64,000 nt of DNA. Source: Yuukianura sp. NJ FZ-2021. Lineage: Eukaryota. The stretch lies in the NCBI GenBank assembly GCA_046563655.1, contig CM102286.1, forward strand, positions 14,012,001 through 14,076,000. The letters run 5' to 3'. The notes under the pieces were generated by a model that searched no databases, had not been told where the DNA came from, and saw nothing but the letters and a program-made list of their open reading frames with translations. Numbering within the stretch: position 1 is the stretch's first letter; each line of letters begins with the position of its first letter. Below, piece by piece: positions 11,340-64,000 of this stretch. A program made the translations under genes and the position numbers.

Positions 11340-14100
11340 ATGAAGCTCAAGGTCATGAAGGTCAAAAATGATCGTTGTCAGTTCTTAGTAGTTTTGATTT
11401 TGTGTTGTAAATATCAAATTGTTGCTGGACTTGATCCAAATGGTAACATACTTATTTCATTTAACTACTTTATTTAAATTTTTAAAGTTTTAATTTATAT
11501 TTTAATACGTTATTAAACTATTTCAATTAAGGTATAAGTGAAGCCATAGAAGACAAAGAAGAAGAGCTGACAGATTTTGGAGATTTTTTAGGCGAAATTC
11601 CACAAAATAGTGACAGTAACAATCGCCTTAAAAGTGAAAAGGGATGTGGAAAGTTACCAAAAGGTTTTGACTATTTAAAATAACATATAAATAAAAAATA
11701 TTTTGAAATTTTAAAAGTTTTACATTTCTAGAAAAACCACCTTTGACCTTGATGGAATACAAGGCCATTCGAGATAAAGCTTTGAATGTAAGGCACAAGT
11801 AAAGTGTGTTTTTTTTTCAAAATTCATTTTTTGAACTTTTTTTTTGAAATTTGGATTTCCGTTTTCATTTTTTGAACAGCAAGAAGACAAGTTCCAACTC
11901 GGCGGGTCATTGACCTTGAACGCCCGGGAACGCAAGGTCAATCGGATTTTGATGAACTACAAAAACAAAGAATTTGAGCAAGGTCTCGTCACAAGTGGAT
12001 TGCGAATTCCATTTCCAGCGGGAATGCACTTTTACCATATCAAAAAGTTTATTAATCACTCCAACGTCTACAAGATCATCAAGTTGATGCCTAAAGGTCA
12101 GTGACCTTTGCCCTTTGACGTACCACCTTACTGAACTTTGTAACGTTCCGGTCAAGGTTCCTTGACAAAGAAAAATGAATTTTCTTTAACAGGTTGAGTA
12201 CTACCTCGCTTGTTGACAAAAAAAAAAAAAGTTAAAATGACAATTTTGATATAGTACCAATCCAACAAATTGGTACCAATTCGTATCCAAAATTAAAAAA
12301 ATTCGGCTGTATTAATTATGACTACGATACCCGGAAATCAAAAGACAATTTTTCTTGTAGAAATCGGGAAAAAAAGCATGAGGTATTACTCAACCTGTTC
12401 AAGAAAATCAAAGCAAACAAACCTTGATTTAGGTGGAGTTTTGCATTTGCATGACCTCCAAAGTGGATCCATGGAGTTTGCTGTGCAGTTGACTAAAATG
12501 ATGCCGAATCTGTACATGTGCTGGGACGCCACACATGTTTTGCGGTTTGAATTTTTCACGACGCCAACAGTCGCGTCTTACTGCGTCACGGATTGGATTT
12601 TGGTGGAGCAATTTAGGCGTAATGCCTCCAGCTCAGAATTTGTCGACGACATTTTCCTAAGGAAAATGCGACTGTTCACGGACACTCCTGAAGGTACGGT
12701 AGCATGAAACTGACCAAGGTCACATGACCTTTGACCTCTCACCTTTGACCTAAAATTTTGAAATTTTGTGTTACCAGTGGACTACCCGGATAATAATGCT
12801 GCTTGGCGTATTTTTATAAACACGATCATAACGACAGGCGGACTGCTTGGTTATGAAAACGCAACGAGACTTTACTTTTACAATTTGCTCCAACAGTTTT
12901 ATGATGACAATTGCCAGTACATTGAAGTCCGAAGTCTCTTGGAATTCGTAAAACTTCGAACACTTTTTCAAAAAATTTTCCAAAATTTTATATTTTCAAA
13001 ATTTTGTTTAGTTTTATAGATTGGATGCAGAAAATCCAGCTTTGAGTGAAGCCGAAGTTTTACAACTGTTTAAAGACGTCACCGATAAATTTGTGGCTGA
13101 ACATCCAGATTTCTGGGGCGCAAGGATTATTTACTCTCCGCGCAGAGTCATTCCCGAATCAGCTATGGCCGAAAAGTAAAATTCAAAAACAGGTTTCAAA
13201 ATTTGGAAATTCTCAAAATTTTGAATTCCTTGTAGACTTGCTATTGCCGTAGAGCTGAAGAAGAAGTTTCCAGAATTCCTTGCCGGTTTTGACATGGCAT
13301 TTCATGAAGACATGGCATACCCACTGGACTACTACAAAGCTCCTCTGCTCAAGGCGTCCGCTCAGGGACTCAAATTTTTCTTCCACGCAGGAGAAACTGG
13401 TACACTGGGAGAAAATTTCATGTCGTCAAAAAGTTTTTCCAAATTTTCAAAATTTTGAAATTTCAGATTGGCACGGAACTAGAATCGACGACAACTTGCT
13501 TGACGCTGTTCTGTTGAACTCTACCAGAATTGGACACGGAACAGCCCTCAACGCTCGACCGTACCTCGTGGAGAAAATCAAAGAAAAAGGAATTGGTTTA
13601 GAAGTTAATCCAATCTCTAGTCAGGTTTGACTTAAATTTAGTAGATAGTTAAGCTAAAGTTAAAATTTAAATTTTAAATTCTACTTTGGCGCCAAATTTC
13701 CTAGGTTTTGAAGCTCAGTTCAGCTGACATGCGCACTCATCCTACAATTCCGTTCATTCGTGACGGATTTCCAATGGTAATTTCATGTGACGACGCAGGG
13801 TCACTTGGAACTAACAATTTGTCCTATGATTTGTACATGGCTTTCATGGCCATGGCGGGACAACGTGCTGACCTCCGGTTTTTGAAACAACTTGTTATAA
13901 ATTCAATCAAGTAAGTTTTAATTTATATTAATTAAAATGTAATTAACTTTTGACTATTGATATTTTAATTTATAGCGTGTTTTTTGAATTTTAGGTACAG
14001 TGCTATGTGTGACAGCGAAAAATCGAGAAACATGAGACGTTTGCGGAAAAAATGGAATATATTTTTAAAAGAAGTTTTGATACAGTTTCCCACCAGTTAG
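11340..14100 (+). CDS. ADA2: Secreted adenosine deaminase 2 / ADGF family
   Basis: Signal peptide, MPKG|GVLHLHD, GFD..HED, FFFHAGET, TRIGHG, EVNPIS, ISCDD, LKQL..NSI.YS. About 11 exons, TAG at 14098-14100. Confidence 0.93.
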
Positions 14101-14209: not shown

Positions 14210-17199
14210 TTAGCGCTTTACAAGTCCAATTCTTATGAACAGTTGTCTGCAACTTGATCTAAAACGTTCCAGGAGTGACGAAATGGCTGAAGTGACTGGT
14301 GCAAAAAGTTTGGCATAATTTTCTTGGTCATACGTTGGTGAAATTGGAATCCACGAAGCACATTTGTATCTATTAAAAAAGTCAAAGGTCAAAGGTCACC
14401 AAATGTCAAAAGTCATCACACATCAAAGGTCAAAAGTCACTAAAGTCAAAGTTACCAAAGTTCAAAAGTGAGGACTTACTTTTGTAGATGAAATGTGATG
14501 AATGGAAGGTCGTAGGAATCTTCTAGGTGGCCGGGATTTGGTCTTGCGTTGCCAAAATTTTCCTCCCATTCGTCCAACCCACGTTCCTTACGCGTACCTT
14601 TGATTTCAAATTTAAAAAACTTAAATTTTATGAACGAAATTTGAAAAATGTAAGTTTTTCAAATTTACCTGGAATTGTGTTGTCTAAAATGAAACCAAAA
14701 AATCCTCCAAGAAACATGCCCGTCCTGAGTAAAATTGTGAGCATTTCATTCAGCGCTTGATTGTTTACAAGCACAATGTTCCTATTCTTTTCCTGACCCA
14801 TCCACTGTGACAATGACTGTACAGTACATGATACATAAAAGTTCAGAATTTTGAAAAATTTGAAAGTTGGATTTTCGATTTTCTAAAGTTTTTTTTTTCG
14901 AAACTTACGAGTGAGAAAAACACGGAGAAGCCAATAACAAATAAGTTTCTGGCCGACGAGAGGTCAACGCCCTTCAGGTTCAAAATTCCCACGGAAGTGA
15001 TCATGGCAAATGCAATGGTCAGGAAAGCACCGACGATTGGTTCTGGAATGCTCACGAAGATGGCATTGAACTTTCCAAAAATTGACAAAACGACCATCAG
15101 AACCCCGCCAATTTGAATGACCCGCCGTGACCCCACTTGCGTGACCCCGATTGACCCCGTATTCTCACTATAAGAAGTTGTGCCACTGGCGGAACCCCAA
15201 ATTCCAGCAATGATACAGCCAAGTCCTTCTATAAAAATTCCACGGTTGATGGAATGCAGGGGTGGGGCCTTCGCACCTACATTTTTCAAAAAGTTCAAAA
15301 TTTTATTAAAAATTTTTCAAAATTTCGAATCCCTTACCGACGAGTCTTGCACAAGCAAAGTAGTCTCCAATAGACTCAATAATTCCGGCAATAACGCCTG
15401 ACAAAATTCCAAAAACTGCTCCGACTCTTACTATTGGTGAACCCCATTGACCTGGATTTTCAAAATGGTTTTTTGAAAATACTTTGAAAACGAGTTTTTC
15501 AAAATTTTAAAAAATGTTAAAGTTTTACCTGGGTATGGAACATAAAAAAATTTCGACTCGTAAAAAATTGTTAAATTGGTAAACCCAGGATTCATCGGTG
15601 AAATTGCTCCGGCATACTTCAGAATCCCACAAATGCTCCACATTATGGCCATTCCCAGCAGAATCTTTGTTCAAGCCAAACTCACTTAGCAAAATTTTGA
15701 AATTTAGAATTCAAAATGTTCAATTTTGGAACTTCCTTACAGGCAAACTTTGAAAAACTTTGTACGTCAAGTGCCCTCTGCGTTTTGGTGACTTTGTAAA
15801 AGGAATTGGGATTTTGAAATCACGGAAGTATTGACTCAGGATAATAATCAGAATCATAGTTCTAAAAAATTGATTAAAATATTTTAGTTAAATGTATTAT
15901 TTTACACATTTTATTATTTATACTATGTTCTTACGGAAATGAAATCCAGATATTGGTCATAGTAGGTCCCGCAGCGATTCCAAACAGCGATAATCCAATC
16001 ATCATAATACTTGGAGCAACCGTAAGTGGTGTAATGTAGCGCAAAATCAAACCAACAAAACCTAACCAAAATTTAGAAAATTTCAAAAATTTTCTTCAAA
16101 ATTTAGCACTCAAAAAATTTTGAAGCATGTTACCGAAAAATCCAAAAATGACTTGAAAAATCGAGGCGACTATAATTGCTCCCTGAATTACACGCATTCT
16201 GCAAGACACGGAGAGTTTCCATAAGGAATTCAAAAAAGTTGAGTTTTTTTTTAAATTTTTCAAATTTTGAAATTTTTACCGCTCTTGCCAAATTTGTTTT
16301 CTGACCTCTGGGTCAACATACTCTCCTTCCTTTGGACACGGAATGGTCCACGTATGACGCTGCAGAACAGCAAGCGTCGAAACAAGAAACGCTGCACTGC
16401 CACCTTGGACTATGGGCAGACGAGTGCCAAAACTACTTTGCAAAATTGTCACCACTCCAGACACCAGCATGAACGTCGCAACTACCTTCAATGCAAAATG
16501 TGAATTTGTTAAAAGAAGAATTCAAAATTCAAAAAAGTTCATTAAAAAGCATTTCTAAAAAGTTCAAAAACTATACTTTGGCTTTATCCGGGTCATCTTC
16601 AGCCATACACATTGCCTTTGTCAGAATAAACGGTCCAGATAGAGCAGTTCCCGCCATCATCAGATACACCTAAAATGCCATTAAAAAAATTATTTAAAAA
16701 ATATTTTTTTTCCGTTCGTTTTATATTAAAAATGGAACAAAACTTACCTGAAGTGACAAAAAGAAAGTCGCAAAAACCGAAGGAACCTGGAAATTACGAA
16801 GCAAAAGTTAACTTTTAAGTTAACTTATTTAATTATTATTTGATTAATTATATTATATTTTAATTAAATTATATTTTAGTTAGTTTTACATCGTCAATTT
16901 CGTAGTACATGGAGTACTTGTCATGTTCCTTGGGTTCAATTGGTTCCGGTTCAATAGTGGACACAATCATAGACGATTGTGTTCCGCTTGGTTCGTGTAC
17001 AAACCTGTCGTTTGGACGCGGATCTGGGCCAATGTCAACTGCAACTCCACTGGATGAGCCAAAATTATTGTCCATTTCAATTGGTTGTGGTGAATTCTAG
17101 AAATTTCAGATCAGTTTTTTCAAAATTTTTCTATTTTTCAAAAATTTAAAAATTTCTAAGTACCGAGTAGACTCTTGTATTTGGACTTTTGGTGTCCAT
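14210..17199 (-). CDS. SLC23/NAT nucleobase(-ascorbate) transporter
   Basis: [25 protein letters not shown], the NAT signature [31 protein letters not shown] and LDNTIPG. Multi-exon; the ATG at 17199 is inferred. Confidence 0.92.
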
Positions 17200-21890: not shown

Positions 21891-24049
21891 ATGGGAAAGC
21901 AAATGACTGATCCGTTATACACAATTACACCAGCATTTCGAACGGGTTATGGTAAGGATTTTTGAGCAACAAAATTTTGAAAGAAGATTTTTGAATTTTA
22001 AATTTTTTGAAATCTAGAACCTGGTGGATTGTGCAAAGGTCCGTGCAAAGTTGCCACTTTTTGTGCGTTGAGCGTTGTACTTCCAGCAACGCTCATCTCG
22101 ATTGCCCTTCTGATGCGATTTGTGATTTGTGGAAGTTACAGCTACTTTATGGCTCCTTCGGACATGATGATTTTGGATCAAGGAATTTCAACGATTTGGT
22201 GTCAAGTGAGTCCATTTCCAAAAATTAAACTACTTTTTCAAAAATATGAAATATACGCAGTACTTTGCTCCAGTTTTTTATTGAGGTCAATGACCTTGCA
22301 TGCTTTTGTGGGAAAGAGTCAAAAGTGGCTCAACTTTTGGTTTTTCTGGTTAAATTTACGTCTTAACGTACCCTATCAAACTTTAATTTAATCGTCAATT
22401 AACTTTAATGTGGTTTTCACTACTGTTCGACCTTTGTAACTGCCAGTTGCTTTGTATTTAGTACTTACCAAGAAAAGATCCAAGTTCAAATCTACATACG
22501 TAGTTGAACTTTGACCAAAACTGAAAACACTTTTATGCTTTTTGTCACATTTTTCAAGAATTTGCTAAATTGCATTACCAATTGCTACAAAATAAAATTG
22601 CTAATATTTGTCACACGTTAAGAAAACAGTTTACGCCTGCCAGAAACAGGAGAATAAATGAAATGAAAATTAAAAATGTTCGTTTTTTTTTTAAAGTTGG
22701 AAGATGACCTTTGACCTTTACTTATTTTTTTACAGGGTGAACGTGTTAATATGAACTCCAGTTTTACGGCGTACTTGACCCAGGGCGAGCCTACACTCCG
22801 GAAGTCCCCTGATCCGCTCGTGTTCACTAAAACTCTGATAGTTCCAGACGATCACAAGGAGTACTGGGGCTTCTATTTACTCAAAGGATCTGCCTTTAGT
22901 CTCTCAACATGTGCAAAGTACGTTCAAAACACAAAACAAACAATTTTTAGAAAATAGGATTCCAAAATTTCGAAATTTTTAATTTTGTGTCGTTTTAGAT
23001 TCAAAGGTGCTACGGTGCTGGTAGTTCAAGGCCGATCTCATCTTCATCACTGTGCTTACATTGGCAACATGGATTCAGCTGGAAATTCAGATGAGCACTC
23101 AGATTCAAAGAGTTTTGAATCCGAAAGACTTTCTCCCGGCTCAATCCGAAAACTTTCGAATTCCACGGGATCCCAAGAAGAAATGACTAAAATCCTAAAC
23201 CAAATTAGATCTTACGTCAAAAGTCACCCGAGAGGTTACAATCATCTTCAAAAAAACTTATTTGGACTGTTTCAACAAAACGGGACGTCTGACGCAGTCG
23301 CCGAAGTCAAATCACGACGACGACGTCGCCGGAGTCTAGAAGCCAGGAACAACAGAGAAGTCGGCAGAATTTACAGAAGACATGCGCGGCCCATTTTCAC
23401 TCCGGAGGATAACTCAGCCCATGAAGAAGATTTGGACTTCCAAATCAATGTCAATGACCTGTCAGAGGTCAAGGTCACGGAGAAGTCAGAGGTCAAGGTC
23501 ACGGAGAAGTCAGAGGTCAAGGTCACTCAGACTTCAATTTGGAAGAACCATGAAATTGGAACTTTCAATTTATCGACTGTAGACGATGGAAGTAACTCTG
23601 AATCTGAATCGAGTTTTTCGAGTAGTGAAGAGGCTTTGGCTCGCTGTGAAGGAATTGTGGGAATTTTCAATTTGAATCGATCTGAAACTTGTGGAAATGG
23701 ACTTCATAATTTTCAGTTTAACTTTACAATTAAGGAATCCGGTTTTTATTATTTCATATTCGGTTCAGAAAATGAGAAAACGAGTAATTTGATGAATGTT
23801 AACTTGGTTGTTGAAAGAGTAGAGTATGACCTGCCAGCTCCGCTTGGAAATTGTACAAATGTGAACAATTGTGAAGTTGGACTGGAGTTCGCGTCAAATC
23901 AAAAGTTTGTAGTGTCAATCCCTCCAGCACTTTCAGAAACTTGGGAAGAAATATTTTATGTTGAGACTGACTGTGTTCCAAGGACTTCAATTTATTTAGT
24001 TTTCGTACTTATGGTCCCACTTATGATACTAATTTTTGCATTTCAGTAA
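21891..24049 (+). CDS. APD1-4 N/middle-domain (DUF4792/4793-type) membrane protein, no RING
   Basis: N-terminal TM, ISTIWCQ, EYWGFYLLKGS, GFYYFIFGSENE, C..VNNC and a C-terminal TM CVPRTSIYL..IFAFQ. Four exons. Confidence 0.7.
23461..23526 (+). repeat. Coding 24-bp tandem repeat (SEVKVTEK x2.75)
   Basis: GTCAGAGGTCAAGGTCACGGAGAA is repeated exactly, in frame. Confidence 0.9.
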
Positions 24050-34451: not shown

Positions 34452-36883
34452 TTATAATGAGTTTCTGTTTGTGTCTTCATGGGATTTTGAATCCTCCAAT
34501 GTGATTAAGTAGTGGATTGTCTTGGATCGGAAGAGACTATAAGTATTGTCAAAGTTCACGGAATCTGTATACAATAAAATAAAATTTCACAAAATTTCGA
34601 AATTTCAACCAAAATTGAAAATTTTGTTACATGTTCCAACACGGGGACAGACGTAAGAGCCCTCATGAACTGCATCCGCCGCACATCTTTTTCTAGCAAC
34701 AACTTCAGTTTTGGTTTCAGAGGAAATTGAAAATCCAATGTCATGAGAATCACTTTTAAAAATCCAACTGAAATTTCAAGAAATTATCACTATCTGGTTT
34801 CAAAATTGACTAATTGTACTATTTAAGTTAACATTATTCAAGTTAGGGTATTGGGAAAAACCATTTGTAATTTGAGGCAAACCTGATTTTCATGTGGGCA
34901 TCCTTGACTTCATAATCCAAATTCAATTTGTTCCCTGCAATTATGGTCACTGTGTTAAGAGCATCAATGGAAACACCACTCATGCCCAATCCACCATCAT
35001 CAGCAGCAATTAACTTAGCAGCATCAATTTTCTAAAAAAAAATTTCAAATTTTGGAATTTGGTTTTCAAAATTTTGGAAGCTGCAACTCACTTTTTGAAG
35101 CGTATCGGGAAGTGTACCACCATACTTGATTGGTAAGCAGGAAGGACTAATGTCGTTGAGCAAAGCTTTTTTCCACTTGTTTGAATTTCCGTCGTAGAGT
35201 TGCACTTTTCCAATCGTTTTAGCCGCAAGCATCTTTTTTACTAGTGGGAAAAGCAGGGCAAACAGCGATGGAGCTGAAATGAAACAAAAACGAAATTGGA
35301 ATTCAAAATTTTGATTTTTTTTAAACATTTTTTTTTACTTACCGTTGATAACATATGCCACAGCCAAGCTTTCTGGAAAGTTTCTTTCAAAATTCCGAAA
35401 ACTCTCCAGCAAAACTTCAGGAACTGAAAGTATTTTGGAAAAACACAAGTCAAATTAGTTTTTTTCTTAATGAATTGAAGAGTTCAATGAGCTGACCTGC
35501 AACAGACGTTAAATTTCTCATGTTGAACCCTGTGAGGTCAAATATAATGACAATTTGAGTGATGACCTTGCCTTCGGCCGATTTCGCTTTGACTTCTGCC
35601 ATCATTTTTGCAGTGACTTGAACCAGGAAGCGATGAATCATGTCTTTCCTCCCCTCAGACAACTCTCTCCGAGCGTATGGATCCCATTCACAGACAGGCA
35701 CAACCACAACTTTTTAATTTTTAGACAAAATTTTTTAAAATCAATTTTTTTTTGAAAAGTTCATATTTTAAAAAGTTGTTTTCTACCTGGACATCCCTGT
35801 TCGTCATAGCCAGTGAATTCATAAGGGAAGTACAGGTCATAATTTGGGGGTGGTTCCCACTTCAGGATGTTTTCATAGTCATAAGATTTTCGCCATTCCC
35901 ACGACTACGAAAAATTAATACCAAGATTATTTCAAAAGTATTAATTTTTTTTTACATGGGAAAATACACTTGAGTGATTTTCTTTTATCCTAATCGTAAC
36001 TTTTCCAAAAGTTCTACTGTAGAAAGTTAGAAGGTGTGATGGTGTTTTCAAAAAATAATATTTTGGAATTTTATTATTTTTCACAAATTAGGAAAATACA
36101 CTTGAGTGATTTTCTCAGCCTAATCGTGACTTTTCCAGAAGTCCTTCTGTAGAAAGTTAGAAGGTGTGATGATGTTTTCAAAAAATAATATTTTGGAATT
36201 TTATAATTTTTCATAAATTAGGAAAATACATTTGAGTGATTTTCTCAGCCTAATCGTCACTTTTCCAGAAGTCCTGCTGTAGAAAGTTAGAAGGTGTGAT
36301 GATGTTTTCAAAAAACAATATTTTGGAATTTTGTAATTTTTCATAAATTAGGAAAATACACTTTAGGGAATCTTTTTTTATCCTATCCCTGTTTTGACAA
36401 AGAGTATTTTGAAAACTTCTAATGGAAAATGCCTGACGGTAACAGTTGTATGGTTCTCGGGCGAAGCCTCAGCAAAAATGTGAAACATTCTTTGAAATTT
36501 CTAAAAGTAAATCCACTCAAAATTTTCTCTTTAAGCTTTACCCGTCTGATCATGCGTTCTGCTCTGTCCAAATCGTAGTTCCTGGCTCTGGGCCACTTGA
36601 TCATATGAATGTCCAGTTTCTCAATGTCCGCCAGTTCCATATCGCTGATTCTCGTTCGAAACTAAAAAATCAAAACAAAATACACAAAATAAAACAAAAT
36701 GTATTAACAAAAACATGGTGCAAATACAAGTCTCAAAGTTTAGTGCTACGAAACGGGCTGTAAAGCTATAAACATTTTTGTTTCAATTCAATTCAAAACT
36801 TAAAAATAAGTTTTTTTTTTTACACAAACCTCTTTCAAAATTTCTTCTTCCTCGGCAGTAACTGGCGGGTATCTGTCTTCCAT
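34452..36883 (-). CDS. SEC14-like (CRAL-TRIO + GOLD), paralog 3
   Basis: WPRARNYDL, IIFDLTGF, ERNFPESL, KTIGKV, LPIKYGG, WIFKSDSHDIGF, FDNTYSLFRSK. Confidence 0.9.
35959..36363. repeat. Intronic minisatellite, ~130 bp x3
   Basis: Near-identical units start GGAAAATACA at 35959, 36091 and 36221, with a partial unit at 36351. Confidence 0.92.
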
Positions 36884-46550: not shown

Positions 46551-46634
46551 TTTCCTTAGCGGTTCCCCTGTTAAAACAACAACAAATTTCAACACAAATC
46601 GCTATTTAATTTGACCTTTCCAAAAAAAAAGAGA

Positions 46635-46910
46635 AAGTTGTCTAAAAAGTGTAAAAGTGTCTAAAAATGTGTAAAAACTGTCGAAAAAGTGACTAAGCTT
46701 CAAGTATCTAAAAACAATAAGTGTCTGAAAATGGCTAAAATACTGTAGAAAAAGAATTTAAAAGTGTCTGAAAACAAAAAGTGTCTAAAAGTATCTAAAA
46801 ATAAAATGTCTAAAAGTATTTACAAACAAAATGTGTCGAAAAGTGTTTAAGAATGAACAGTATCTAAAAGTATCTAAAAGTGTCAAAAAACAAAAAGTAT
46901 CAAAAATCTA
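46635..46910. repeat. Degenerate AAGT(G/A)TCTAAAA short-period repeat
   Basis: More than ten imperfect copies of AAGTGTCTAAAA/AAGTATCTAAAA. Confidence 0.7.
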
Positions 46911-49900
46911 AAGCTACAAGTTCAGCATCACATTTTGCTCAATTCGGCACCAAACTACCTACTTTTTATCCAAAAATTTTTTTACACCAAAAAGCGTTTA
47001 CACTTTCAACGCCGACTTGCAATCTCCCTTCCTGTTTCCTCTTCCTCAACTGATCGCTGACAACTAGCTTTTGCTTTCTCCACTTCAAACTTTCACTCCT
47101 TTAAAAAAAACGTGGGAACCTTATCCGGTGAGCTGAGAATGATGACTGACTGATTTCCGCCAACAGTCCTTCACTTTTATGATCATCATGTGTAGACCAG
47201 GTTCCAAAGTTCTCCAGAGAAAGTACAACAAAAAGAGCTCCAAACCCAAGAAACCTTGGAATCAGTAAGACGATACACCTCAACTAAGCAACAACATGAG
47301 CACTGGAGCTCCAGCGATCCTTCCAGCCTCCTTTTATACCTTCCACGAAAAATGAGTCTGCAGGTTCAGCATAACCAGCTAAAGTGTCGCCCATGGCTAC
47401 GACAAAGGTCGCTCTACGTCCAAAATTAAGTATCATCCGAAAAATGAAGTTCAACCTACGCTTCCTCTCCTCTCTTCAACAAAATTTGGTCCAACCAAGG
47501 TTTGTTCACTTTGATTTTCTTTAACAGGTTGAGTAATACCACAACTTTTCGTTGCAAAAAAGAAAAAAAAAGTGTCTTTCATTTCCGGTTATCATCCTAG
47601 TTATAGCAATACAGCCGAATTGTTTAAATTTTACATACCAATTACTCCAATGTTTTTTTTTCATTTTTTGTCAACAAGCCAGGTAGTACTCAACCTGTTA
47701 AAGAAAACTCATTTTTCGTTGCCAAGAAACCTTGGGTCCAATTTTAGCCTATACCATGTCTCCACAATCCCTTCCATTGTTAGTCCAATTCAATTTGGTT
47801 AGGTTAAGAACCTAACTTGAACAAAATGTTAGGCTAGGAACCTAATCTCAACAAAATGTTAGGCTAACCAGCCTAACTTTCATGTCTGATGTCCCATTAG
47901 CTTATTAGTGTTGCTGCAACAGTAAGTCCAAAGTCCAATTTCCAGAATCAAATTATGGGTTCAGCGGAAATGGAAAAGGAAAGTCTTGTCCAGAACTTGT
48001 AACAAGGAGCGTCTTTATCCAACTTCTTTTCAAATAATCACCCACATGCTAAGGACAAGTTCACTACAAAAGAACACGGGAACAATAAGTATTCCAGCAT
48101 CCAGTATCCAGCATCCGGAAGGATTCAGGAGAAAGTATTCCTTGGACATACCGGAATCCAATTACCGGAGATCCAGAACTGAATTTAGAGAGGATCAAGG
48201 TATTATCATATCCAGTTCCATTTCGAATTTTCCCATGCAATCACACTATAATACTTGAAAAGTAAACGGAATTACACATCTCCAATTTCATTAGTTTACA
48301 AGTTGTGTGTACTAATGAAATTGGATACCATTTGTACTTCCGTCGGTAGTTACACAAACCTATCCAAACTTTTAACTTCATGAACAAACAACTTTTCTCG
48401 ATTTCAAAAATTAAAAAAAAAACTCAATTTCCAAACACGTTCGACTTTCTCTAGCCAAACACAAGAGTGAAACAAGAATTAAAAAAAAAAGTTTGAATAT
48501 TCAGGACACAGTTGGAATTGAATAAATTACGATGAAGTGGGTTAGAATTTTTTGAAATTTTGAAAATCGCTTCTACTTTCGCTGATTCAGCGTCGAAGTT
48601 GTGACTCTCGAGATATAATTAGTACGTCCAAGGTCTAAAAGCTTGCAAAATGTTTGAACAGAGTGGCTGGAGAGTGACCAACATTTTGAGAGAAGCGTCA
48701 AGCGATGCGAAGACGCTTAAGCATCCATCACTTAAAAGCCCAAAATAGCTTCTTCGCCTCTGAGAATCTTAGAGAAGCCGTTTCTCAAATCGTATTTGCC
48801 AAGTTTTTGATGACTTTGCGAGTCGGCCGAATCGAAAAGTTGGACTTAAAAGCTAAAGCGTCCAAATGGAACTTTCTGTCAAACTTTGTATTTGTCTCCA
48901 CAGTGCGTAAATGGTCCACTTTTAGTCCAACTATCCTCATTCATTACTTTCTTATTGACAAAACCAAACAAACTTTGAAGAAAACTGTGAAAATGAAAAG
49001 AAACCGTGAAATTAGTACCGAGTGAAACCTGAGTAAGTTTTTCACAACAACTAAATTGGATTTTGTAATGGAACTAAACACCAATACACAACTTTTCTTT
49101 GGCAAAACAAGATTTTCGTTGATAAAACTAGACTCAAGACTATCACAAAACAAACTAAAATTTGACAATTGCGAATCCAAAATTGACAAATTACGACAGC
49201 ATGAATTACTCAACTTTTTGTTCATAGAGAAAACATTCAGCTTGGTTTTCCAGGGTTGCAAAAAGGCTATTTTCGTCACTTCGGAAAAACTTTGTCAATA
49301 AAATTAATATCTAGCTGCTCTTTCGTAATAACGAAAATTCTTAAGCAATCTTTCAATATCAACCCTAAAAAAGAGAAAAAGAAAAGAAAAAAAAAGTAGA
49401 AAATATTTATAAATTCGGACAATAGAGTGCCTAAAAATTCTATTCTTTTCGTAAACCTGAATTTAATAAAATAATTTAGTGAAAAGAAACGCTTCAATAA
49501 AAAAAAAAGACAATGAAAATTCCAGAACATAAAAAATATATTAAAAATTACTTAATTTTTTGTTATTGGAATACTTGACGACAACGTATTTGTCAAATTT
49601 CGTACTTCGGCGTGTTCAACACGAATCCGACAGCGAATCAATCAAGAACGAAAGTATAATCTGCTGAATTTTTTATAATTTCAGTTCGCGAAGTGTTTCT
49701 TTTTTCAAAATAGAAACTGGGGAAAGATGAGACAAGAGTCGTAGTTCAACATGAATTTTTTAAAACAAAATCTCACTTCGAAAAAAGCAAAAACTTGAAA
49801 ACTTTATTGAAATTTATTTTCAGTCTGTCGCATGATATTAGAGTGGTCCACTCTCTGATCCCTAACAAAAAATTCAAATTCAAAACTAAATTCGCACAGA

Positions 49901-50134: not shown

Positions 50135-50484
50135 TACCGTAAAATTTCTAATATAGCCCCGACCTCCTATGTCAAAGCGATTGTAAGGTTCAGCCTTCAC
50201 ATGGGTTGAGACACAAAGAATGACAGTGTAGAAAAAATAAATAACCAAGTGAGACTCGAACCTACATCTCTTCAATCCGGGAGAGGCTCTAACCATTGAT
50301 TCATCAGGTTCTGATCAAACAGGTTGGAATCGGAAGGCTACTAACAAAAAGACACAGTTTTGGCAGTGAGACTGTTGCCAAACGCCACAGGATCGTAAAA
50401 AAGGTAGTACCCAACCCGTTAAAGAAAATTAATTTTTCGTTGTCAAGGAACCTTGCCCGGGCTGCTACTAGGAGTTTTACGGTA
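50135..50484. mobile_element. Non-autonomous Tc1/mariner-superfamily (Tc2/pogo-like) element with nested tRNA-like sequence
   Basis: Left end TACCGTAAAATTTCTAATATAGCCCCG. Right end reverse complement TACCGTAAAACTCCTAGTAGCAGCCCG. TA flanks. Confidence 0.65.
50243..50310 (-). pseudogene. tRNA-derived sequence (SINE head or pseudo-tRNA)
   Basis: The minus strand has A-box-like TCAATGGTTAGAG and B-box GGTTCGAGTC with AACC/GGTT ends, but no clean cloverleaf. Confidence 0.5.
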
Positions 50485-52319
50485 TCATCTTCGAAGTAAA
50501 GTGTTTTGAAAAAAGAAAGAAAAAAAGTAGGATTCAAAATTCCAAAACAGTGATCTTCCATTTCCTCCATTTGCTTTTACTTTACTCTCAAAAAATAAAA
50601 AGAAAATCCAGAAACTTTGTTCTTTTTGCATTGGGAAATTGGAATTTAAAGAGAAAGAAAATATAAATCAAATATTCTACATATCATCTCACTTCAGTTC
50701 AAAAAATTTCTTTCAAGTTTCAAGATCCAGTCCAATTTTCCAAAAAAAAAAAGTTCAAGGGAATGCTGATTCCGGCGAAAGAAAAAAGCGGGAACTTTTT
50801 TTTTTGAAAAAGCGTGCTGAAAGCTTTCGGAAACTTGAACTCAACGTGACTCACATTTCACAAAGGAATCATTTTACATCGTCACTGCTCCTAGACTTGC
50901 CGTTTTTCAAAATTTCAAAAAAAAAAAAAATCAAAATGAGTCCAAAAGGATAACAGGAAGTTGTCTTTGATCTTTCAAAAAAAAAATTCTTCGCTCAGCA
51001 ACAAACGGAAAATTTGACTGGTGTCAAACTTTACACTTTTGTTCAGAAAAAAAAAATTAAAAATCACTTCCACCTTTCAAAATTCGATGAAAAATGATTG
51101 TCTTTTTTTTTCAGAATTTCTTCAATTTTGCTTCCATTCTCTTGCCTTTTTTCCTCGTTTTTTTTTTTGAAAAATAAAACTTTCAATGTAAAAATTTACA
51201 AAAGGAAAACTAAACTGACTATTAAACAGAGATTGTAAAACCAATTACAACCTACACAGTATACTCCTTTTCATGTCATGCTGTTGATGTTCTTGTTAAT
51301 TTGTATTTTTTTTTTTATGTAAAAACTATTTTTAGCACAACCGTCATGCTCGTTTAGCACAACCACAAAAAACTGTAAACCGGCAGAGTAAAAACCGAAA
51401 AATAAGTTTTCTTCACGAATCCAAGCCTGTCTAAAAACTGACACGAAACTTTCATATCTTCCCTCAAAAAATCTTTTTCTAAGGAAGAACTTGAGAGATT
51501 GACTGAATATTGAATTTTTCAATAAAGTTTTTTCATATTTTTAACTTTTTTTTTACTTTCACTTTTTCCTCGTCTTTTTTTGGCAGGAGATACACAAACT
51601 TTCCACTTTCATCTTAGTACCGCCAATTTCCAAAAAAAAAAGTATAATAGAACGAAGTACAACCTTCGTAGACAAAATGGCGTCAATTTTTGAACTAAAA
51701 AATTTGTTGACAGTATCTGCCGTTATGCGGTGCCAAAAAACTAAAAGTTGAAACAACTTTAAGCCTTTCGCGCCCTAGCGGTTACACACTTTTAATCAAG
51801 AAGGTGGAGGAAGTAAACAATCGATACAAAAAGAACATTCCCGAGGAGCATCTCGACACGCACTCAAAATGATGGAATGATCTTACGTGGTGTGAATGGA
51901 ACGTGACCAAGGTGACATACTAAAAGTCTTACCGTCGTCGTCGTCATTCCCACACAAACAGGGTCGTTTTAATCAAAAACTTTCTCAACACTAACGCACG
52001 ACTTGTAGTGAGGTCGGTGAAAGGTGAACGTACAGACAGACACACTCCTGGAACTTCACCTTAGTAAACACGCCGTACAACGGAAGTTGTGAAAACAATG
52101 ATGTTGAGACAAAAATACCCTCAACAGGTTAATTAATTAAGGTGTAGCCAATTAATAATCGCCAGAAAACGTACTTTTGGAGCTTATAGCCCGATAAATA
52201 GGGTAATTTCACGCTCACACTTTGTTTACGCTTCGCAATCTCTCTATGAAACTGAAACTTCACCGACGTGAAGAGACGAAATTTGTAAGATACTGACAGA
52301 CTATGCTGACTAATGCTGA

Positions 52320-57334: not shown

Positions 57335-58098
57335 ATTGAATAGAGTAAGCTTTTGCTTAAGAACTGTGAGTAAGTAGTAAGTAGTTGTTGACGGAAGGAG
57401 GTGAAGGAAGGCAGTGACGAGAAAGTGGCTCAAATCCTGGACTAAAAAGCCAATCCAGCTCCTTCGGCAGTAACCAAAATAAGTTGAGCCAAAGTGCTTC
57501 CAGGGGTGACGGACGCTTGGTGTGGTGGTGGCCAGTAGCCAAAAATTTTTGTCGAGCGTGGCCTCAGCCAAAACTTTGTCGAGCATTAATAAAGTGAAGC
57601 TCAAGATCACGGATTCGGAGGTTCTAAAATTAAAAAGTTCCACTCCCCCTGCCCTGTACTTGGCAACATTTAGTGTGGCAAGAACCGGGCAACATTGTTT
57701 CCAAGGGCAAAGAGGACAATGAAACTGCTACGAGTGATATAAATTCCATGCCCCTCGAGAATCCATGCCTTTAGATGTCCTGATATGTATCTTGTTTCCA
57801 GCATTATGTTAAAAATAAAATTCAAGGATGCAGTTCACCTCTTAGCTTACATTTTCAACCGCACCGACCGCGGGGTTTGATCACGCGCCGAAGCAAAAGA
57901 CGTCAGGGTCCGGTGCAGGTCTCCAACTTATTTATTCTAACTCGTGCCTGCAACGAATCCTTTTACGTAGAAAAGAAATGACAATGAATAATTCAAGAAA
58001 AAGAAATTTTACTTTACAAGTTGCTCTTTGCAATTACAATATTTAGTAAATTGGAAATTGTAGCAAATGACATGACCTGACCGTGACGAAGATCGCAA

Positions 58099-58728
58099 TT
58101 ACAAGAAACCAGTTTTCTCAACCATCACGTGAGGTTGGACAATTGCTTCAGAGTCTAGCGGATGTCCAAGGAAGTCTTCGAATCCAATCAATTCATCTCG
58201 ACCTGTGATACATATCAAACCGACATAGTGTATCATGTTCAACTTAACGTTTTCTAAACGTTATCTTTTTTTACTAACCAGTGAGAGCTTGAAGTGAAGC
58301 CTCATGTCGACGGAGAAATGGCAAATGTCCTACTTTGGATAAACATTTCCGTTCTGCCTGAAGACGTAGGGGAAGATGGATTCCCTGAGATCGTCGTAGT
58401 AAAGCCATTTCCAATTGGTCCTGACGTTGATGAAACTTGATACAGTAAAACCAAGAAAAAAAATTAGTTGAATTAATTCATGGCTTTAGAAATTTTGTCA
58501 GATTAAGTTAAAAACGAATTCATACCGTCAATTCGGCTTTCTCAAGTGGATGTTCAGTAATACGTAGAGACGTTGGGCCACCACTGCCGGTAGCATACGT
58601 ACCAAACCTGTGCTTACCAAACGAATGTTAGTTTAGCATGTCGTAATCAATCGTAATGTAGTAATCTAAAGTTAATCTTTGGTTTTAAGCAAGGTTACTT
58701 ACGATCCCTTTGTTGCGTCTAAGGCCAT
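58099..58728 (-). CDS. POMP: Proteasome maturation protein (UMP1)
   Basis: Spliced: HPLEKAE..LRRSQGIHLPLRLQAE..HLPFL..ALTG|RDELIGFEDFL..PHVMVEKTGFL. Four exons, absent from the ORF track. Confidence 0.92.
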
Positions 58729-59582
58729 TGTCGTCGTCGACGGCAAATACTTAAAGATGTATCTGAATAATTCGAACCGATACCGAAACAAGGACCGGTA
58801 CAGAAGAAACGATGATTTTAATTGTTTTTAGACCAATTGAATTGAATTCGTCCGGAAAAAATACTTGCAAAAAAAAAGATGACTTTTTAAATTTTTGGTT
58901 GCACAAAAAGCTACTTGTGACAGTCTGTCACCCTCTTCACCATATATGGACATAAATTTAACAATTCAAAAACTAAACCAATTAACTTTAATGAATAAAT
59001 GTGACATGATTTCCGAAGCCAGGGATCAACTGCTGAGTCGCCTTATGTCACTGACCTTTCGCGCTCATGATTTTCAATGGGAAAATACAATTTAAACGGC
59101 GACATTAACGGCATTAAATTTAAATAGTTTCATTGATGGGATCGTTTCAGTGAGACGAGACTGAGACTTCTCACCGCGAATTTTTAAAGAGAGCGCTATT
59201 TTCCATTGAATTTTTTTTAAGGAATTCGAAGAATTCGGAGTGCTAAGATTTGTTTTTGTTTTGAATGTTGTGATCTCTTAGAACGAAGTAATGTTTTCGG
59301 GTTAAAAAGTCAATTGGTCTATAAAACCCTTTAACTAAACAAATCAGAAACTGAATGTATTTGTGAGTAATTTACTCACAACGGAGGTCACTTCTTCATC
59401 GCATCGTCCACCAATCAGCTGGTTAGTTAAATTTGTTGTACATAATTCCATTTTTCCATTAATTATGAACTAATGACGACTAGAATAAACAATAAACGTT
59501 TAATTATGGTTTGTTTTTATGTAAGGTCGGTTGCGTCTGGACATACGGATATTTTGATTGGAAAAACAACGTTTACACATAA

Positions 59583-61409
59583 ATGGACGACGCCAAAATC
59601 GTGCTTCAGCGTGTAGACGGGGCTTCTGAAAAGCAGAGGTCAATGGCAACTGCTATCGATAGGGCTATCGCGGAAATGGAACTATCTGAAGAAATAAAAC
59701 TCGTTCCTGTGCCGTTGTCGTCTTCAATGCCTCGAGAACCGGAAGATGAAGGAACAGACGTTATTTGTGAAGATAATCCTGCAAGTGATTCAGGAAAAGA
59801 GAAAAGTACTGGCGATGGTGCCAATCTGGACGACGATGACGAACCTCAAATAAATCCTAGTTTGTATGAAGTTATTGATCTCAGAAAGCGCGTTGATGAA
59901 ATGGAAAGCTACATTGCAAATCTTCACGGTGAAGTACGTCAACTACGGCTGAAACTGCGAACTTTGGATCCGGAAGGAGCAGGATTTCAGAAAATACTGG
60001 AAGCCAATATTGTTAAAATATTGGATAGGCAAAACTGGAAGATTTCCCGAAGCAATGATCAAATCAAGGGTAGCTTAACTTCAACATTGTTTGCTGTAAT
60101 GTTATTTTTGACGTATTCATGCGTACCTAAGTAAGGTTCATGTTTTCCTTACTAGCTCGAGTTCCAATCCTAACACCGATTGCTAAGATCGTTAAGCAAG
60201 AGCGTTCTGGTCCCCGAGCACCACAATTTAAGCGAGGTGATCCACCACCTCCACCTCGCCGTGTCCGTGTCAAAAAGCGAGGCTTCTCGGCACCGTTAAC
60301 TTCTGATGAAGACACTGGTATGGAGGACAGTCAAGACGCCGGTGATGAGCCATTGGCGGGAAAAGAAATTGACGACGACGAATACAGTGATCCGTCATAC
60401 CACCCCGGAGGAAATGATAGTAGTAACCTAGAAAACGTCAAACCAAAAATCACCAGCCGGAAGCCTGCTCCTCTCTCTAAGAAATCCGCCGGAAACGTTT
60501 CATCACCCAAAGTTATGATCGTAAAGAAGTATGATGCATATTGTGAGGCGCGTAAGTATGTCTGTCACAATGCAAGAGTACTTTTTAAATTAAAAATTGC
60601 TCAATTTCTACACGTTTCCAGCAAAGACTCCAGCTAGCGTCATTCGTTCTGGAGATGTTTCAGTCATTCTGGAGGAAGATTACGATGAACAACAAGAATC
60701 CGATACAAAACAGAAACGAACGATCAGAGCCTACCGACCACGAGGTGGTACCCGTAAACCCTACGTTCGACCCAAGGTCAAATGCAGGTGAGAAATTGTT
60801 AGTTTAATTGCATTATGCGGCAATCAATTTTGCTAATACTAATTTATATTTTTAACATTCAGCATGTGCCCGAGAGAGTGTAGGGATCAGCACGACGTAA
60901 GCCAAACTGAAAAAATAAGTTTCTACACTCAATTCTTTTTAAAACTTGTAAAACTGAAAGCTAAATTGTAATTTTGTATGATAGCTCATCAAGCACGAGA
61001 GGATACACACTGGTAAGACAGTTAAAAAGAATTTGATTGCGTTGTTACCCTATTTCAAGGCGTATAGCTCGCGTGGTATCTGATGTTTTCCAGTTCCCGG
61101 CAAAATAAAGAATAAACCAGAAAAAAGCTTCTCACTTGAGTTTACGCCCAAAATATTTTAAATTTAGTGCGGGGTATACCCGGCTGCGACTTATACGAGG
61201 TTGAGGCTTATACGTGGTTGCGGATAATACGCTGGGAAATAGGGTAGTACATTAATTTTTTTTTTACAATTCTAATTTGTTTCTGTCTTGTCCCCTTTTT
61301 AGGTGAGAAACCCTACTCCTGCTCTGTATGTGGCCCGGATACTCGATTTACTCAGAAGTACCACATGCAAAGGCATATGAGGAAGTACCATACTTTAGAT
61401 GGAAGTTGA
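59583..61409 (+). CDS. C2H2 zinc-finger protein (two C-terminal fingers, coiled coil, acidic regions)
   Basis: KC|SMCPRECRDQHD|LIKHERIHT|GEKPYSCSVCGPDTRFTQKYHMQRHMRKYH, TGA at 61407-61409. Confidence 0.8.
61046..61246. mobile_element. Intronic MITE (Tc2/pogo-like termini)
   Basis: TACCCTATTTC..GCGTAT and ATACGC..GAAATAGGGTA inverted ends with internal GCTTATACG repeats. Related solo ends terminate at 52205 and 62016. Confidence 0.7.
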
Positions 61410-61665
61410 AGCGAAGCGATTTCACAATTTGGATAGCTTCAACCCAATATTTTTAATTAGTTTCATAAAAATTTACTTTTTAAGAGTCAAACTTTAATCA
61501 ATTTATCACTTTTGTTTATATTTATTAGAGCACCGAAATAGCTTAAATCTCTATCAAGTAAACTTTTTTCTAAGAATGAATTTAGCTTATGTCACAGTTA
61601 CCAAGCACCGAATTTAAATCGACGCTTTTCTGATGAGTCGTTTGCGAATTCATCATGTCGCCATT

Positions 61666-62236
61666 TTAGTCACCACTTGAGCCTGGTGCCGGGAGTGTGA
61701 CGACGAGTTCAGGTTCTTGATCACTGAGATTGTAGGTGACAGAAGTAACACTCTGTTCTACAAATGAAGTAATTGAAAAGATGATTCTGCCGCCAATTCG
61801 CAGTCGTTTCAAAGATTCTTCCAAATCTGTATCTTTGTTTTCATCATTTACAATTTCAAGGTCACTTCCAGTGTCAGCGCTTCTCCTACGCTTTCCTGAT
61901 AAGTTAAAAATTTATATTACTTTATTTCATATAAATTCGGATTAATTTAGAGATGGGAAATGATATTTCAGTGCGTGTTATACGGGAGTGCGCGTTATAC
62001 GCCGATAAATAGGGTATGAAATAATATTTAAATTTTTTTTAAATTTAACCTGCTCTAGTTGTGCTTGGAGCAACCAGTTGTGCTTGTTCTGAAAAATCGG
62101 GGACATTCGGCTGCCTTAATCGATGATACGTGCGATGATGTAAACTGGAAATTCGTTTCCGTTTTGGTATTGGTCCATTTTCAATCAAACTCAAAACGTC
62201 AGTGTCTTCGTACTTTCTTCTTCTCGGATTACTCAT
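61666..62236 (-). CDS. Orphan ~140-aa protein with NLS-like basic clusters (2 exons)
   Basis: MSNPRRRKY..PKRKR..TTRAG|KRRRSADT..LKRLRI..SSGD-stop. A GT-AG phase-1 join keeps the frame open. Confidence 0.6.
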
Positions 62237-62890
62237 ACTGTTCAATTAATTACTAAATTTTAACTCTAATTAACAAATTTGCTAATAATTGAATTTGTAT
62301 TGAAGGAAACAGGACAAATACTATTCAATTTAAAAAAAAAATCTTTCTGAGAAATTCTGCAACACAATATTTTCTGGCCCAAATCCAATTCGACTCGGAA
62401 TTCATCGGTTTTGTTTTCAACCTTGTACTACCCGGAATACTAAAAACCGGGTATCGCAAGTTATGCTGAAGGTTTTGTTCAATGTATTGAAATTTTTACT
62501 TTTGTGTTAATTGACCATGAGCAATAACCACGAGCTGGTCAATTTAAAAGTAAAATGAGCCGCATGCTAATTCCAAAATTTCGATAATTGAGTAACAATA
62601 ATTGTTACTCAGCAATTTTCAGCAATTATTACTGAAATTGTGAACTTGAACTTAATTCTTTCAAACTCTAAATATTGCTAAAGACGCAACATTCTGACAA
62701 TTTGCACCTCAAAATTTGAAATTCCAAGTAAAATTGAAACTAAACTTAACCGGTGAGTTAACTGTTAGCAATTGGACACTTTGCAAAGAAGTTTTTTAAA
62801 AATCTGCCTGTTCCAACGTAGAAGTCAACTCGACAATAATTGTGTTTTTTTTTAAACTAAATTTTGTCAACGCGCTGACGCAGCGTCAAC

Positions 62891-64000
62891 ATGGGTGACA
62901 GTGACACTACAAAGCTTATTAAAAATTGTCAGAAGATTCCTTCAGTAGGTTTTTCAAAACCAACAAAGTTTTTGAAATAAAATATTTTTGAAATCGAAAT
63001 TTTTTGAAAAGAAAATTTTTTTTAGGAATCTGAGTCTGACTCCTCATCAGACACGTCGCCAGACGACACTTCAGTTCCCTTTCGTCCTCGGCGTACCGAT
63101 CGCATCATGTCCGTAGAAAACACGACTTTAACTGAAATCATAACAATTTATGAAAAATTGAAAAAAGGGCGGGAAAACCGTGTTCTAATGAAATCCAAAC
63201 TGGAATTTCCCGCTCACCGCAACAAATGTGACATGACCGGTACGGTTTTTGTAGACGACGGTACAACTGCAAGTGAAACGATTCCGATGGTACCGACTTT
63301 CAATGCCGGACCAGAAAAAAGTGTCATTTCGATTCTGGATTTTAACAAATTCAAAAATTTCCGGCACACCAAGTACTTGTACTACTCTCAAAAAGTTGGA
63401 CTTTTACAGTGTGACTTTATTGAAAACCTTGGACAAAGTTTTGCTGAATTGCTCAAAGGAAAAAATTATTGGCTCAACATTTACGATCCCGACGAAGAGG
63501 ATTTTTCTATTTTATTTAACAGTTATGGCGTTCATGATTTGACGATCAATGACATTCGAGAAGGCTACACTGAAGAAAAATTAGAAGTATTTGAACATTA
63601 TACTTTTGTATCTATGCGTCTAATGTCCGAAAACAAAAACAATAACGACACAGACAAAAGTGGCCAAAAAGATGACGATGACGTAGATTTTAATATCTTA
63701 TTGTTCAAACATTTTGTTATAACAATACACGAAAAACATTGGCCAAGTATCAACGATATTCTGGGCTTTTTGAATCTGATTACACATAATGCGCATGCGC
63801 CATTATCACCCGACTGGGTTTTCTTTTCAATTTTTATTGAAATGAATCAAGATGCAAAGTACATTATGAATTTAATTGAACCTAAAATTGATGAAATTAG
63901 ACTCGGTAACAAATCGGTTGAAGTCATGAAAAGGAATTTTGACCTCGAATTGGAAGTTTACGGTATTTCGAGATTTATTAAACCCAAAATGAAAATTTTG
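62891..64000 (+). CDS. CorA-superfamily Mg2+ transporter, fungal ALR1/MNR2-like (runs off window)
   Basis: Exon 1 is 62891-62944, intron 62945-63025. Exon 2 is open for 325 codons to the edge: YWLNIYDPDEEDF..YGVHDLTINDI..EEKLEVFEHYTFV..FNILLF..ITIH..SPDWVFFSI..LIEPKIDEI. Confidence 0.8.

Follow-up and report, generated by a model that had tools for sequence, protein, structure and literature searches.

The end of a 64,000-nucleotide stretch of DNA from Yuukianura sp. NJ FZ-2021 (contig CM102286.1, positions 14,012,001 to 14,076,000; hereafter the window, with positions counted from its first nucleotide) probably holds the first ~343 codons of a gene that encodes a divalent-cation channel of the CorA family (GMN type) and stems from an old horizontal transfer linking a microsporidian lineage and an arthropod. 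In this reading, which we hold as a single joint claim, the gene most likely passed from parasite to host, was then duplicated and has been kept under purifying selection. The channel type is already well known; its ancestry is unusual and well supported. An initial annotation of the window had proposed a fungal/microsporidian-type magnesium transporter of the ALR1/MNR2 kind, horizontally transferred into an arthropod chromosome. Our analysis retains the transfer and the CorA family and revises several of the particulars.

The evidence begins with a forward-strand reading frame at 63026-64000, which stays open for 325 codons and runs past the end of the window. This is the 975-nt exon without a stop codon that had first been pointed out, and the motif order claimed for it is present in its translation (YWLNIYDPDEED, GVHDLTINDI, EEKLEVFEHYTF, LLFKHFVITIHEK and SPDWVFF). 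A run of 325 open codons at 36% GC is far beyond chance expectation. Among the 11 stop-to-stop frames of at least 150 amino acids (aa) in the 64 kb, it ranks second, behind one of 363 aa at 22958-24049. The initial annotation had set the intronless core apart from every other long gene here. Its length as an open frame does not distinguish it in this way, and the absence of introns is borne out by tblastn searches with five relatives, each of which gave one colinear match between 63077 and 64000, and therefore indicated no internal intron in this part of the exon. The same searches found no second CorA copy in the window. The translation matches the Pfam CorA family (PF01544) with an expect value (E) of 8.2e-15 and 55.3 bits, against a cut-off of 27. 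The match ends well short of the full profile (positions 3-170 of 292), so that what lies in the window is the cytosolic, N-terminal half of the CorA domain; ~115-145 residues precede that match in the window protein, which is seen only up to position 64000.

The coding start must lie further upstream, in an extra exon, for three reasons. An in-frame TAG at 63023-63025 closes the frame of the long exon (exon 2) upstream, the conserved basic stretch that precedes the sequence 'S.ENT.L' in the family maps upstream of the first in-frame methionine of this exon (63107, RIMSVENTTL), and four relatives have no methionine at that place. A plausible gene model, predicted from the nucleotide sequence, supplies such a start with a short exon 1 joined to exon 2 across a GT..AG intron of 81 nt (Table 1). 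The AT-rich 'TTTTGAAA' text of this putative intron, at 62965-63010, is similar to text in non-coding DNA elsewhere in the window, at 29250 and at 44167 (family D7, 65-74% identity).

We built an AlphaFold2 model of the window protein on an alignment of 45 clade members. The model has a predicted template-modelling (pTM) score of 0.73, and its residues ~101-325 mostly exceed 90 in predicted local distance difference test (pLDDT), with blocks at 80-97 except for residues 201-220 at 55-58. The first 100 residues are mostly disordered, save for a short helix at residues 33-44. When compared with the PDB by Foldseek, the model retrieved Thermotoga maritima CorA on top (E 9.4e-09, probability 1.00, template-modelling score 0.47-0.50 over 209-230 columns), and the lower matches were CmaX and ZntB of the same superfamily. 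A profile of 13 family members, searched against PDB sequences, likewise matched T. maritima CorA (E 5.7e-21, over positions 118-408), whereas no chain named Mrs2 was matched at E up to 1. Mrs2 structures exist in the PDB. The original assignment to a CorA-family gene other than MRS2 is upheld by this difference and by the Pfam match. Residues 201-219 (63626-63682) form an insert of low complexity (NKNNNDTDKSGQKDDDD) that separates two strands of the CorA domain and is modelled with low confidence; Folsomia and the relative P0008 have far longer inserts at this site.

A single GMN tripeptide lies 40-95 residues from the C-terminus in 27 of 27 full-length relatives of the clade. By comparison with them, the remaining stalk, the two membrane helices and the GMN loop of the window gene should lie just past position 64000. 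In T. maritima CorA, a pentamer, the cytosolic domain is the sensor of cytosolic Mg2+ and the gate of the pore: it binds the ion and shuts the pore when Mg2+ is plentiful. By analogy, the window channel may work as a pentamer gated by Mg2+ through its cytosolic domain, and Mg2+ would most likely be the conducted ion.

Relatives of the window protein are few and of a peculiar taxonomic mix. A word-indexed protein search found 18 relatives, with identities to the window protein of 52-60% for the full-length P0002-P0005, 39% for Folsomia candida, 35% for Bradysia odoriphaga and 36% for the JGI entry 'Antlo1', which we take to be the microsporidian Antonospora locustae. Microsporidian rows in the protein searches are 34-36% identical. 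HMMER, run exhaustively against 1.84 billion representatives, returned 343 matches at E <=1e-3, 33 at 1e-10 and 16 at 1e-30, and we looked up names for 30 of these representatives. The named rows of the close tier are microsporidia (Dictyocoela, Spraguea, Nematocida); the next tier holds early-diverging fungi (Paraphysoderma, Mortierella, Spinellus, Dispira, Calcarisporiella, Rhizophlyctis) together with the unicellular holozoans Creolimax and Pigoraptor. A profile search yielded 77 proteins at E <=1e-10, of which 57 form a tight group with E 4.4e-47 or better. Of the named rows in this group, 13 microsporidian species and 'Antlo1' make up one part; the other consists of Folsomia candida (three rows), Bradysia odoriphaga and Pseudolycoriella hygida. 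Fungal proteins come next, at ~1e-38. Among the 77 profile matches, no animal beyond these three species is named, and neither is any protein called MRS2. A search of the Atlas with the CorA fragment recovered general plant and fungal CorA clusters only and was uninformative on distribution. The CorA gene is not unique to this genome, and its family is narrow, limited to microsporidia and a few arthropods.

In Folsomia, the family occupies three loci, annotated as 'Magnesium transporter ALR1' (P0316), 'Manganese resistance protein MNR2' (P0320) and LOC110859409 (P0010). The loci of the sciarid flies (fungus gnats) are 'putative metal ion transporter C27B12.12c' of Pseudolycoriella hygida (P0297) and HA402_007190 of Bradysia odoriphaga (P0017). 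The names ALR1, MNR2 and 'metal ion transporter' were assigned automatically from best hits and do not reflect tested functions. All of these relatives sit on contigs of 2.4 to 193 Mb.

The arthropod and microsporidian proteins also have an N-terminal motif in common. The pattern [IVL][IVLT][TS][IVA]Y[ERQ][KR][LM]x[KR] occurs in 55 of the 223 collected proteins, all within the microsporidian/arthropod group, and in none of the more distant rows. The window copy reads IITIYEKLKK; arthropod copies have the variant Y-E-K-L and microsporidian copies Y-R-K/R-M. This motif would be a shared derived character, one that supports the clade apart from the tree.

Two maximum-likelihood trees (LG+C20+F+G4) were calculated from 41 and 40 rows picked from the 223 proteins. 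The selection comprised the long close-family rows, every row with a name and some rows drawn from the next tier, and it omitted short fragments and most of the distant rows without names. Both trees recover the arthropod-type rows as a single clade (support 100/99). The support of the microsporidian clade is 90/78 in the first tree and 95/85 in the second, and in both the two clades are united with 100/100 on a long branch apart from the fungi, Creolimax and Pigoraptor. The window protein groups with P0002-P0005 in a five-row subclade (95/86, then 99/95), and a 100/100 branch sets it apart from all 8 named fungal rows, with yeast Alr1 and Mnr2 outside the sampled rows. The label 'fungal/microsporidian type' is therefore apt in its second half, the closest named relatives being microsporidian, and not in its first, since the protein lies outside the sampled fungal CorA group. 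Grouping with proteins named MRS2 or with a broad metazoan family, which had been set out as the outcome that would speak against a foreign gene, was not seen among the 77 profile matches, whose tight group has microsporidia and a few arthropods as its only named members.

Within the arthropod clade, the sciarid rows (P0297, P0017 and P0016) are sister to the Folsomia 'MNR2' paralogue P0320, a 274-aa fragment, with 100/100. When the non-sciarid arthropod rows were held together with the sciarids outside, the tree was 102 log-likelihood (lnL) units worse, and an approximately unbiased (AU) test gave p-AU 1e-62. The nesting of the sciarids among Folsomia paralogues suggests either arthropod-to-arthropod transfer or very old paralogy.

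The DNA around the gene reads as animal DNA with short exons, and likely as that of an arthropod. An exon at 14843-15316 on the reverse strand corresponds to an SLC23 transporter, with best named matches at 57-65% identity that are spread over many animal phyla (Branchiostoma, Allacma, Priapulus, Daphnia and decapods), none of them a close relative. Other exons of the window match the Pfam families SAYSvFN, APD1-4_M and zf-C2H2, and the Atlas cluster closest to the APD1-4 exon is labelled 'commonest Arthropoda' (score 0.95). The CorA exon has a third-position GC content (GC3) of 37%, against 31-47% in ten other frames, and its synonymous codon use correlates with that of the pooled neighbour exons (r 0.77).

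We also aligned contigs, assembled independently from public DNA runs, to positions 58000-64000. Stretches left uncovered in a single run, and the small word shares of X4 and X5, were given no weight. One X1 contig covers 58000-62015 with 0 differences at depth 44. Another (X1 record 8), at depth 50, spans 61987-64000, shows 8 differences there and extends 1,490 nt further, so that the CorA exon and 1 kb of upstream non-coding DNA lie on the same contig. The short reads do not bridge a repeat at 61933-62017, so what supports the junction with the left flank is this agreement in depth together with the assembly from which the window was taken. In X5, which comes from a second study and another organism, both flanks and the gene are present in diverged form, and its intergenic stretch 62054-62797 has a depth of 3.5-3.6, the same low level as its left flank. 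The neighbour exons, the codon use and the contig depths agree with the earlier placement of the gene in animal-type DNA, likely that of an arthropod.

At the repeat itself, contig depth rises from ~44 to 314 in X1 (~sevenfold) and reaches ~2,100 in X2, and many contigs stop or start there with unrelated loose ends. No tRNA gene was found in 60500-64000, so the repeat is not a tRNA. The window contains no second full copy of it, one 15-nt match lying at 52191, and a repeat search of the window at 45 nt did not report it. In X5, a contig joint is recorded that 'goes back 948', from 64000 to 63053. This joint and the depth of the X5 contig over the exon may reflect a multi-copy or tandem state, or the repeat content of the contig.

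The coding sequence bears signs of constraint. Among the exon differences listed, 13 of 15 are synonymous, and the replacements I38V and H229D introduce residues found in relatives. This count is indicative of purifying selection on the CorA exon and is no formal test, because it takes in the best-supported differences only, some of which may come from paralogous contigs. All 8 differences between X1 and the window over 61987-64000 fall within 340 nt (63370-63710); 7 of them are synonymous, and the 1 kb of upstream non-coding DNA has 0. Such clustering could be due to a second haplotype or to exchange with a paralogue. At 63143 and 63184, both X1 and X2 have loose ends where contigs share only the conserved stretch and the flanks read like the paralogue P0004, so the sample appears to hold at least two members of the family.

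Linkage, composition, conflict with the species tree and patchy occurrence (three named animal species) all point the same way, and a horizontally transferred gene fixed in an animal genome is the likely status of this locus, with a linkage that crosses the repeat at which contigs break. We propose that a fungal-type CorA would have been inherited vertically in the microsporidian lineage and passed into an arthropod by one parasite-to-host transfer. Duplication in arthropods would have followed (three loci in Folsomia, at least two in this sample), and one paralogue would later have moved into sciarid flies. Animals with the gene would then possess a second, non-MRS2 channel for Mg2+ or other metals alongside mitochondrial MRS2; whether in the plasma membrane or in a storage compartment is a matter of speculation. 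The fuller version, a two-step relay from a microsporidian-lineage parasite to a springtail-like soil arthropod, where duplication took place, and from there with one paralogue to the sciarids, leaving a non-animal CorA route of Mg2+/metal uptake or storage beside MRS2, is offered tentatively, and we would put it somewhat below an even chance. Springtails are known for their metal handling, and the relay may be tied to it, although this connection is speculative.

Several points weigh against an old transfer from parasite to host of a working channel gene. In the best tree, the arthropods stand beside, not within, the sampled microsporidia. A tree with the arthropods inside the microsporidia, next to the non-Nematocida group, is 2.8 lnL worse and is not rejected (p-AU 0.186), which makes parasite to host no more than the most likely direction. 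Microsporidia evolve fast, two rows deviate in composition and the Creolimax branch is long, so part of the long shared stem may be an artefact. The groups subjected to AU tests follow taxonomy but were named only after the first tree had been seen, the rows in the trees are a chosen subset (40 or 41 of 223), and those of the arthropod clade are mostly environmental proteins without an assigned organism. On the side of the gene, the GMN motif, the membrane helices and the stop codon fall beyond the window end at 64000. On the side of the locus, the X1 contigs break at the high-copy repeat and overlap by just 29 nt, and the X5 contig over the exon has an anomalous depth of 39, compared with 3-5 for the flanks.

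Foremost among the alternatives, yet unlikely in our estimate, is a transfer in the reverse direction: arthropods would have evolved the channel or been the first to acquire it, and an arthropod host would have passed it to the ancestor of the sampled microsporidia. The sister position of the two clades in the best tree gives no direction, and host-to-microsporidian transfers are described in print (PMC4313915, PMC3337132). Against this reading, the tree with arthropods nested in microsporidia is not rejected. Moreover, a reverse transfer needs a separate non-animal source for the arthropod gene, since the 77 profile matches include no further animal. Nematocida species, which infect nematodes, carry the gene too. 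Microsporidia are allies of the fungi, whose proteins make up the next-closest CorA group, so vertical inheritance of the gene in microsporidia needs one transfer fewer.

Much less probable is vertical descent within animals, by which an ancient opisthokont CorA was kept in a few arthropods and lost in nearly all other animals, the grouping with microsporidia being a long-branch or compositional artefact. Creolimax and Pigoraptor keep a non-MRS2 CorA, so the animal stem may have had one, and the fast microsporidian rows and the two rows of deviant composition are of the kind that would favour such an artefact. However, forcing the microsporidia together with the named fungi and leaving the arthropods outside, as vertical descent would have it, lowered the likelihood by 227 lnL and was rejected (p-AU 4e-60). 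The arthropod rows do not group with Creolimax or Pigoraptor, the N-terminal motif is common only to arthropods and microsporidia, and the named animals among the profile matches amount to three species. The position of the sciarids within the Folsomia paralogues is likewise at odds with the species tree. The trees and the AU test thus favour horizontal transfer, as initially suggested, over vertical descent.

A pseudogene, that is, a decaying or truncated copy without present function, is a touch more improbable again. The gene sequence could be followed only as far as 64000, but up to that point the frame is open for 325 codons at 36% GC, the listed differences are mostly synonymous, the fold is confidently predicted and the columns that are invariant in the family alignment are kept in the window protein. 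Least probable of all is that the last 2 kb belong to a parasite or other organism and were joined to the window at the repeat: the independent short-read contigs do break exactly there and the X5 depth over the exon is ~tenfold off its flanks, but X1 depths are alike on both sides (44 vs 50), the X5 intergenic stretch is as low in depth as the left flank, the two exons of the neighbouring gene flank the repeat, the codon use of the CorA exon is host-like, the relatives in Folsomia, Bradysia and Pseudolycoriella lie on very long contigs and, because the listed named microsporidian proteins are only 34-36% identical, the gene is not DNA of a known microsporidian.

With horizontal transfer as the preferred origin, the window gene can be set beside known systems. 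Its closest named counterparts are the microsporidian CorA-like transporters of Dictyocoela roeselum (KAG0418944.1), Spraguea lophii (EPR79378.1) and Nematocida sp. (KAI5189265.1), which fall in the same clade with 100/100. Microsporidian members and arthropod relatives alike are ~390-540 aa long, carry an N-terminal ITIY(R/E)K(M/L)KK and have a GMNV(x)VP pore loop in the full-length members. Unlike the microsporidian proteins, the arthropod versions form a clade of their own (100/99), use the Y-E-K-L variant and are encoded in intron-bearing animal DNA. To our knowledge, none of the microsporidian CorA-like proteins has been assayed for transport. The Folsomia and sciarid genes belong to the same arthropod clade as the window gene, which lies in another subclade with P0002-P0005 (99/95).

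Yeast Alr1, Alr2 and Mnr2 are the fungal plasma-membrane and vacuolar members of the CorA superfamily, of GMN type and non-mitochondrial, and a long N-terminal extension before the CorA domain is a feature of these proteins. The sampled fungal 'CorA metal ion transporter' rows are the next-closest group to the clade. They differ from it in being separated by a 100/100 branch with a length of ~0.9 on each side, in their size (512-853 aa vs 390-540 aa) and in lacking the N-terminal motif. T. maritima CorA (PDB 4eeb, 3jcf, 2bbj, 8tme) has the same fold of the cytosolic domain, with 16-18% identity in the structural alignment, and is without the ~100-residue N-terminal extension. MRS2 and LPE10, the mitochondrial CorA relatives normal in animals, are distant members of the superfamily with a GMN pore.

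The position of the sciarids has a parallel in another gene family. Canonical terpene synthases of Sciaridae are described as an intraphylum gene transfer (PMC11665903), and the sciarid CorA genes nested in Folsomia paralogues would be a second possible case of arthropod-to-arthropod transfer into this family of flies. We found no paper that treats a CorA/ALR1-type gene of arthropods or its link to microsporidia, in a search that left outside the supplements of a compendium of metazoan horizontal gene transfers (PMC13342648) and the terpene-synthase text (PMC11665903), either of which could list the gene. Two supplementary files of the Folsomia genome paper (PMC5490193) contain 0 mentions of ALR1, MNR2, CorA, 'magnesium transport' or PF01544. 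The gene itself is not new, since Folsomia and sciarid members are already publicly annotated under best-hit names. For the Folsomia proteins, the ALR1 and MNR2 labels mask their microsporidian affinity. Parasite-to-animal-host transfers of eukaryotic genes are rarely documented, and among the published cases found here that involve microsporidia most run the opposite way. If our reading is right, a channel that was transferred, kept and duplicated would be an instance of an animal gaining a transport route absent from its phylum.

The features at this end of the window are collected in Table 1. Upstream of the CorA gene and head-to-head with it lies a spliced neighbour, as had been described: a two-exon gene on the minus strand that encodes ~139 residues rich in basic and acidic runs. 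The repeat at 61933-62017 sits in the intron of this gene. The initial annotation had named the neighbour POMP, a label that we could not confirm and have dropped, as neither exon matches a Pfam family at E up to 0.1.

Table 1. Features at the right-hand end of the window (positions in the window; putative features are predicted from the sequence)
Feature	Position	Strand	Details
Two-exon neighbour gene	61666..62236	-	ATG at 62236, stop near 61666; exons ~62236-62050 and 61896-61666
Intergenic stretch separating the divergent CorA and neighbour genes	62237..62890	.	GC 31%; on X1 record 8 together with the CorA exon
Putative exon 1	62891..62944	+	ATG + 17 codons (MGDSDTTKLIKNCQKIPS); its frame continues into exon 2 after a GT..AG intron
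Putative intron, 81 nt, phase 0	62945..63025	+	Donor GTAGGT ... TTTTTTTTAG, acceptor AG at 63024-63025
Exon 2, N-terminal cytosolic part of a CorA-family channel	63026..64000	+	Open frame, cut by the window end; Pfam CorA match; full-length relatives P0002-P0005 at 52-60% identity
Motif IITIYEKLKK, predicted short helix	63137..63166	+	Residues 38-47; model helix at residues 33-44
Confidently folded CorA cytosolic domain (model)	63326..64000	+	Residues ~101-325; alpha/beta core and first long helices
Pfam PF01544 stretch	63461..63988	+	Residues 146-321

Elsewhere in the window, we observed three groups of repeated sequence. A tandem array at 35942-36378 consists of three to four copies of a 130-nt unit that are 88-91% alike, and positions 46625-46916 hold a tandem series of degenerate 'GTGTCTAAAA' units. 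Short stretches of 51-78 nt in 12148-12429 recur in inverted orientation, with 90-92% complementarity, in 47493-47734 and 50402-50460, at distances of 35-38 kb; they are probably dispersed copies of one mobile element.

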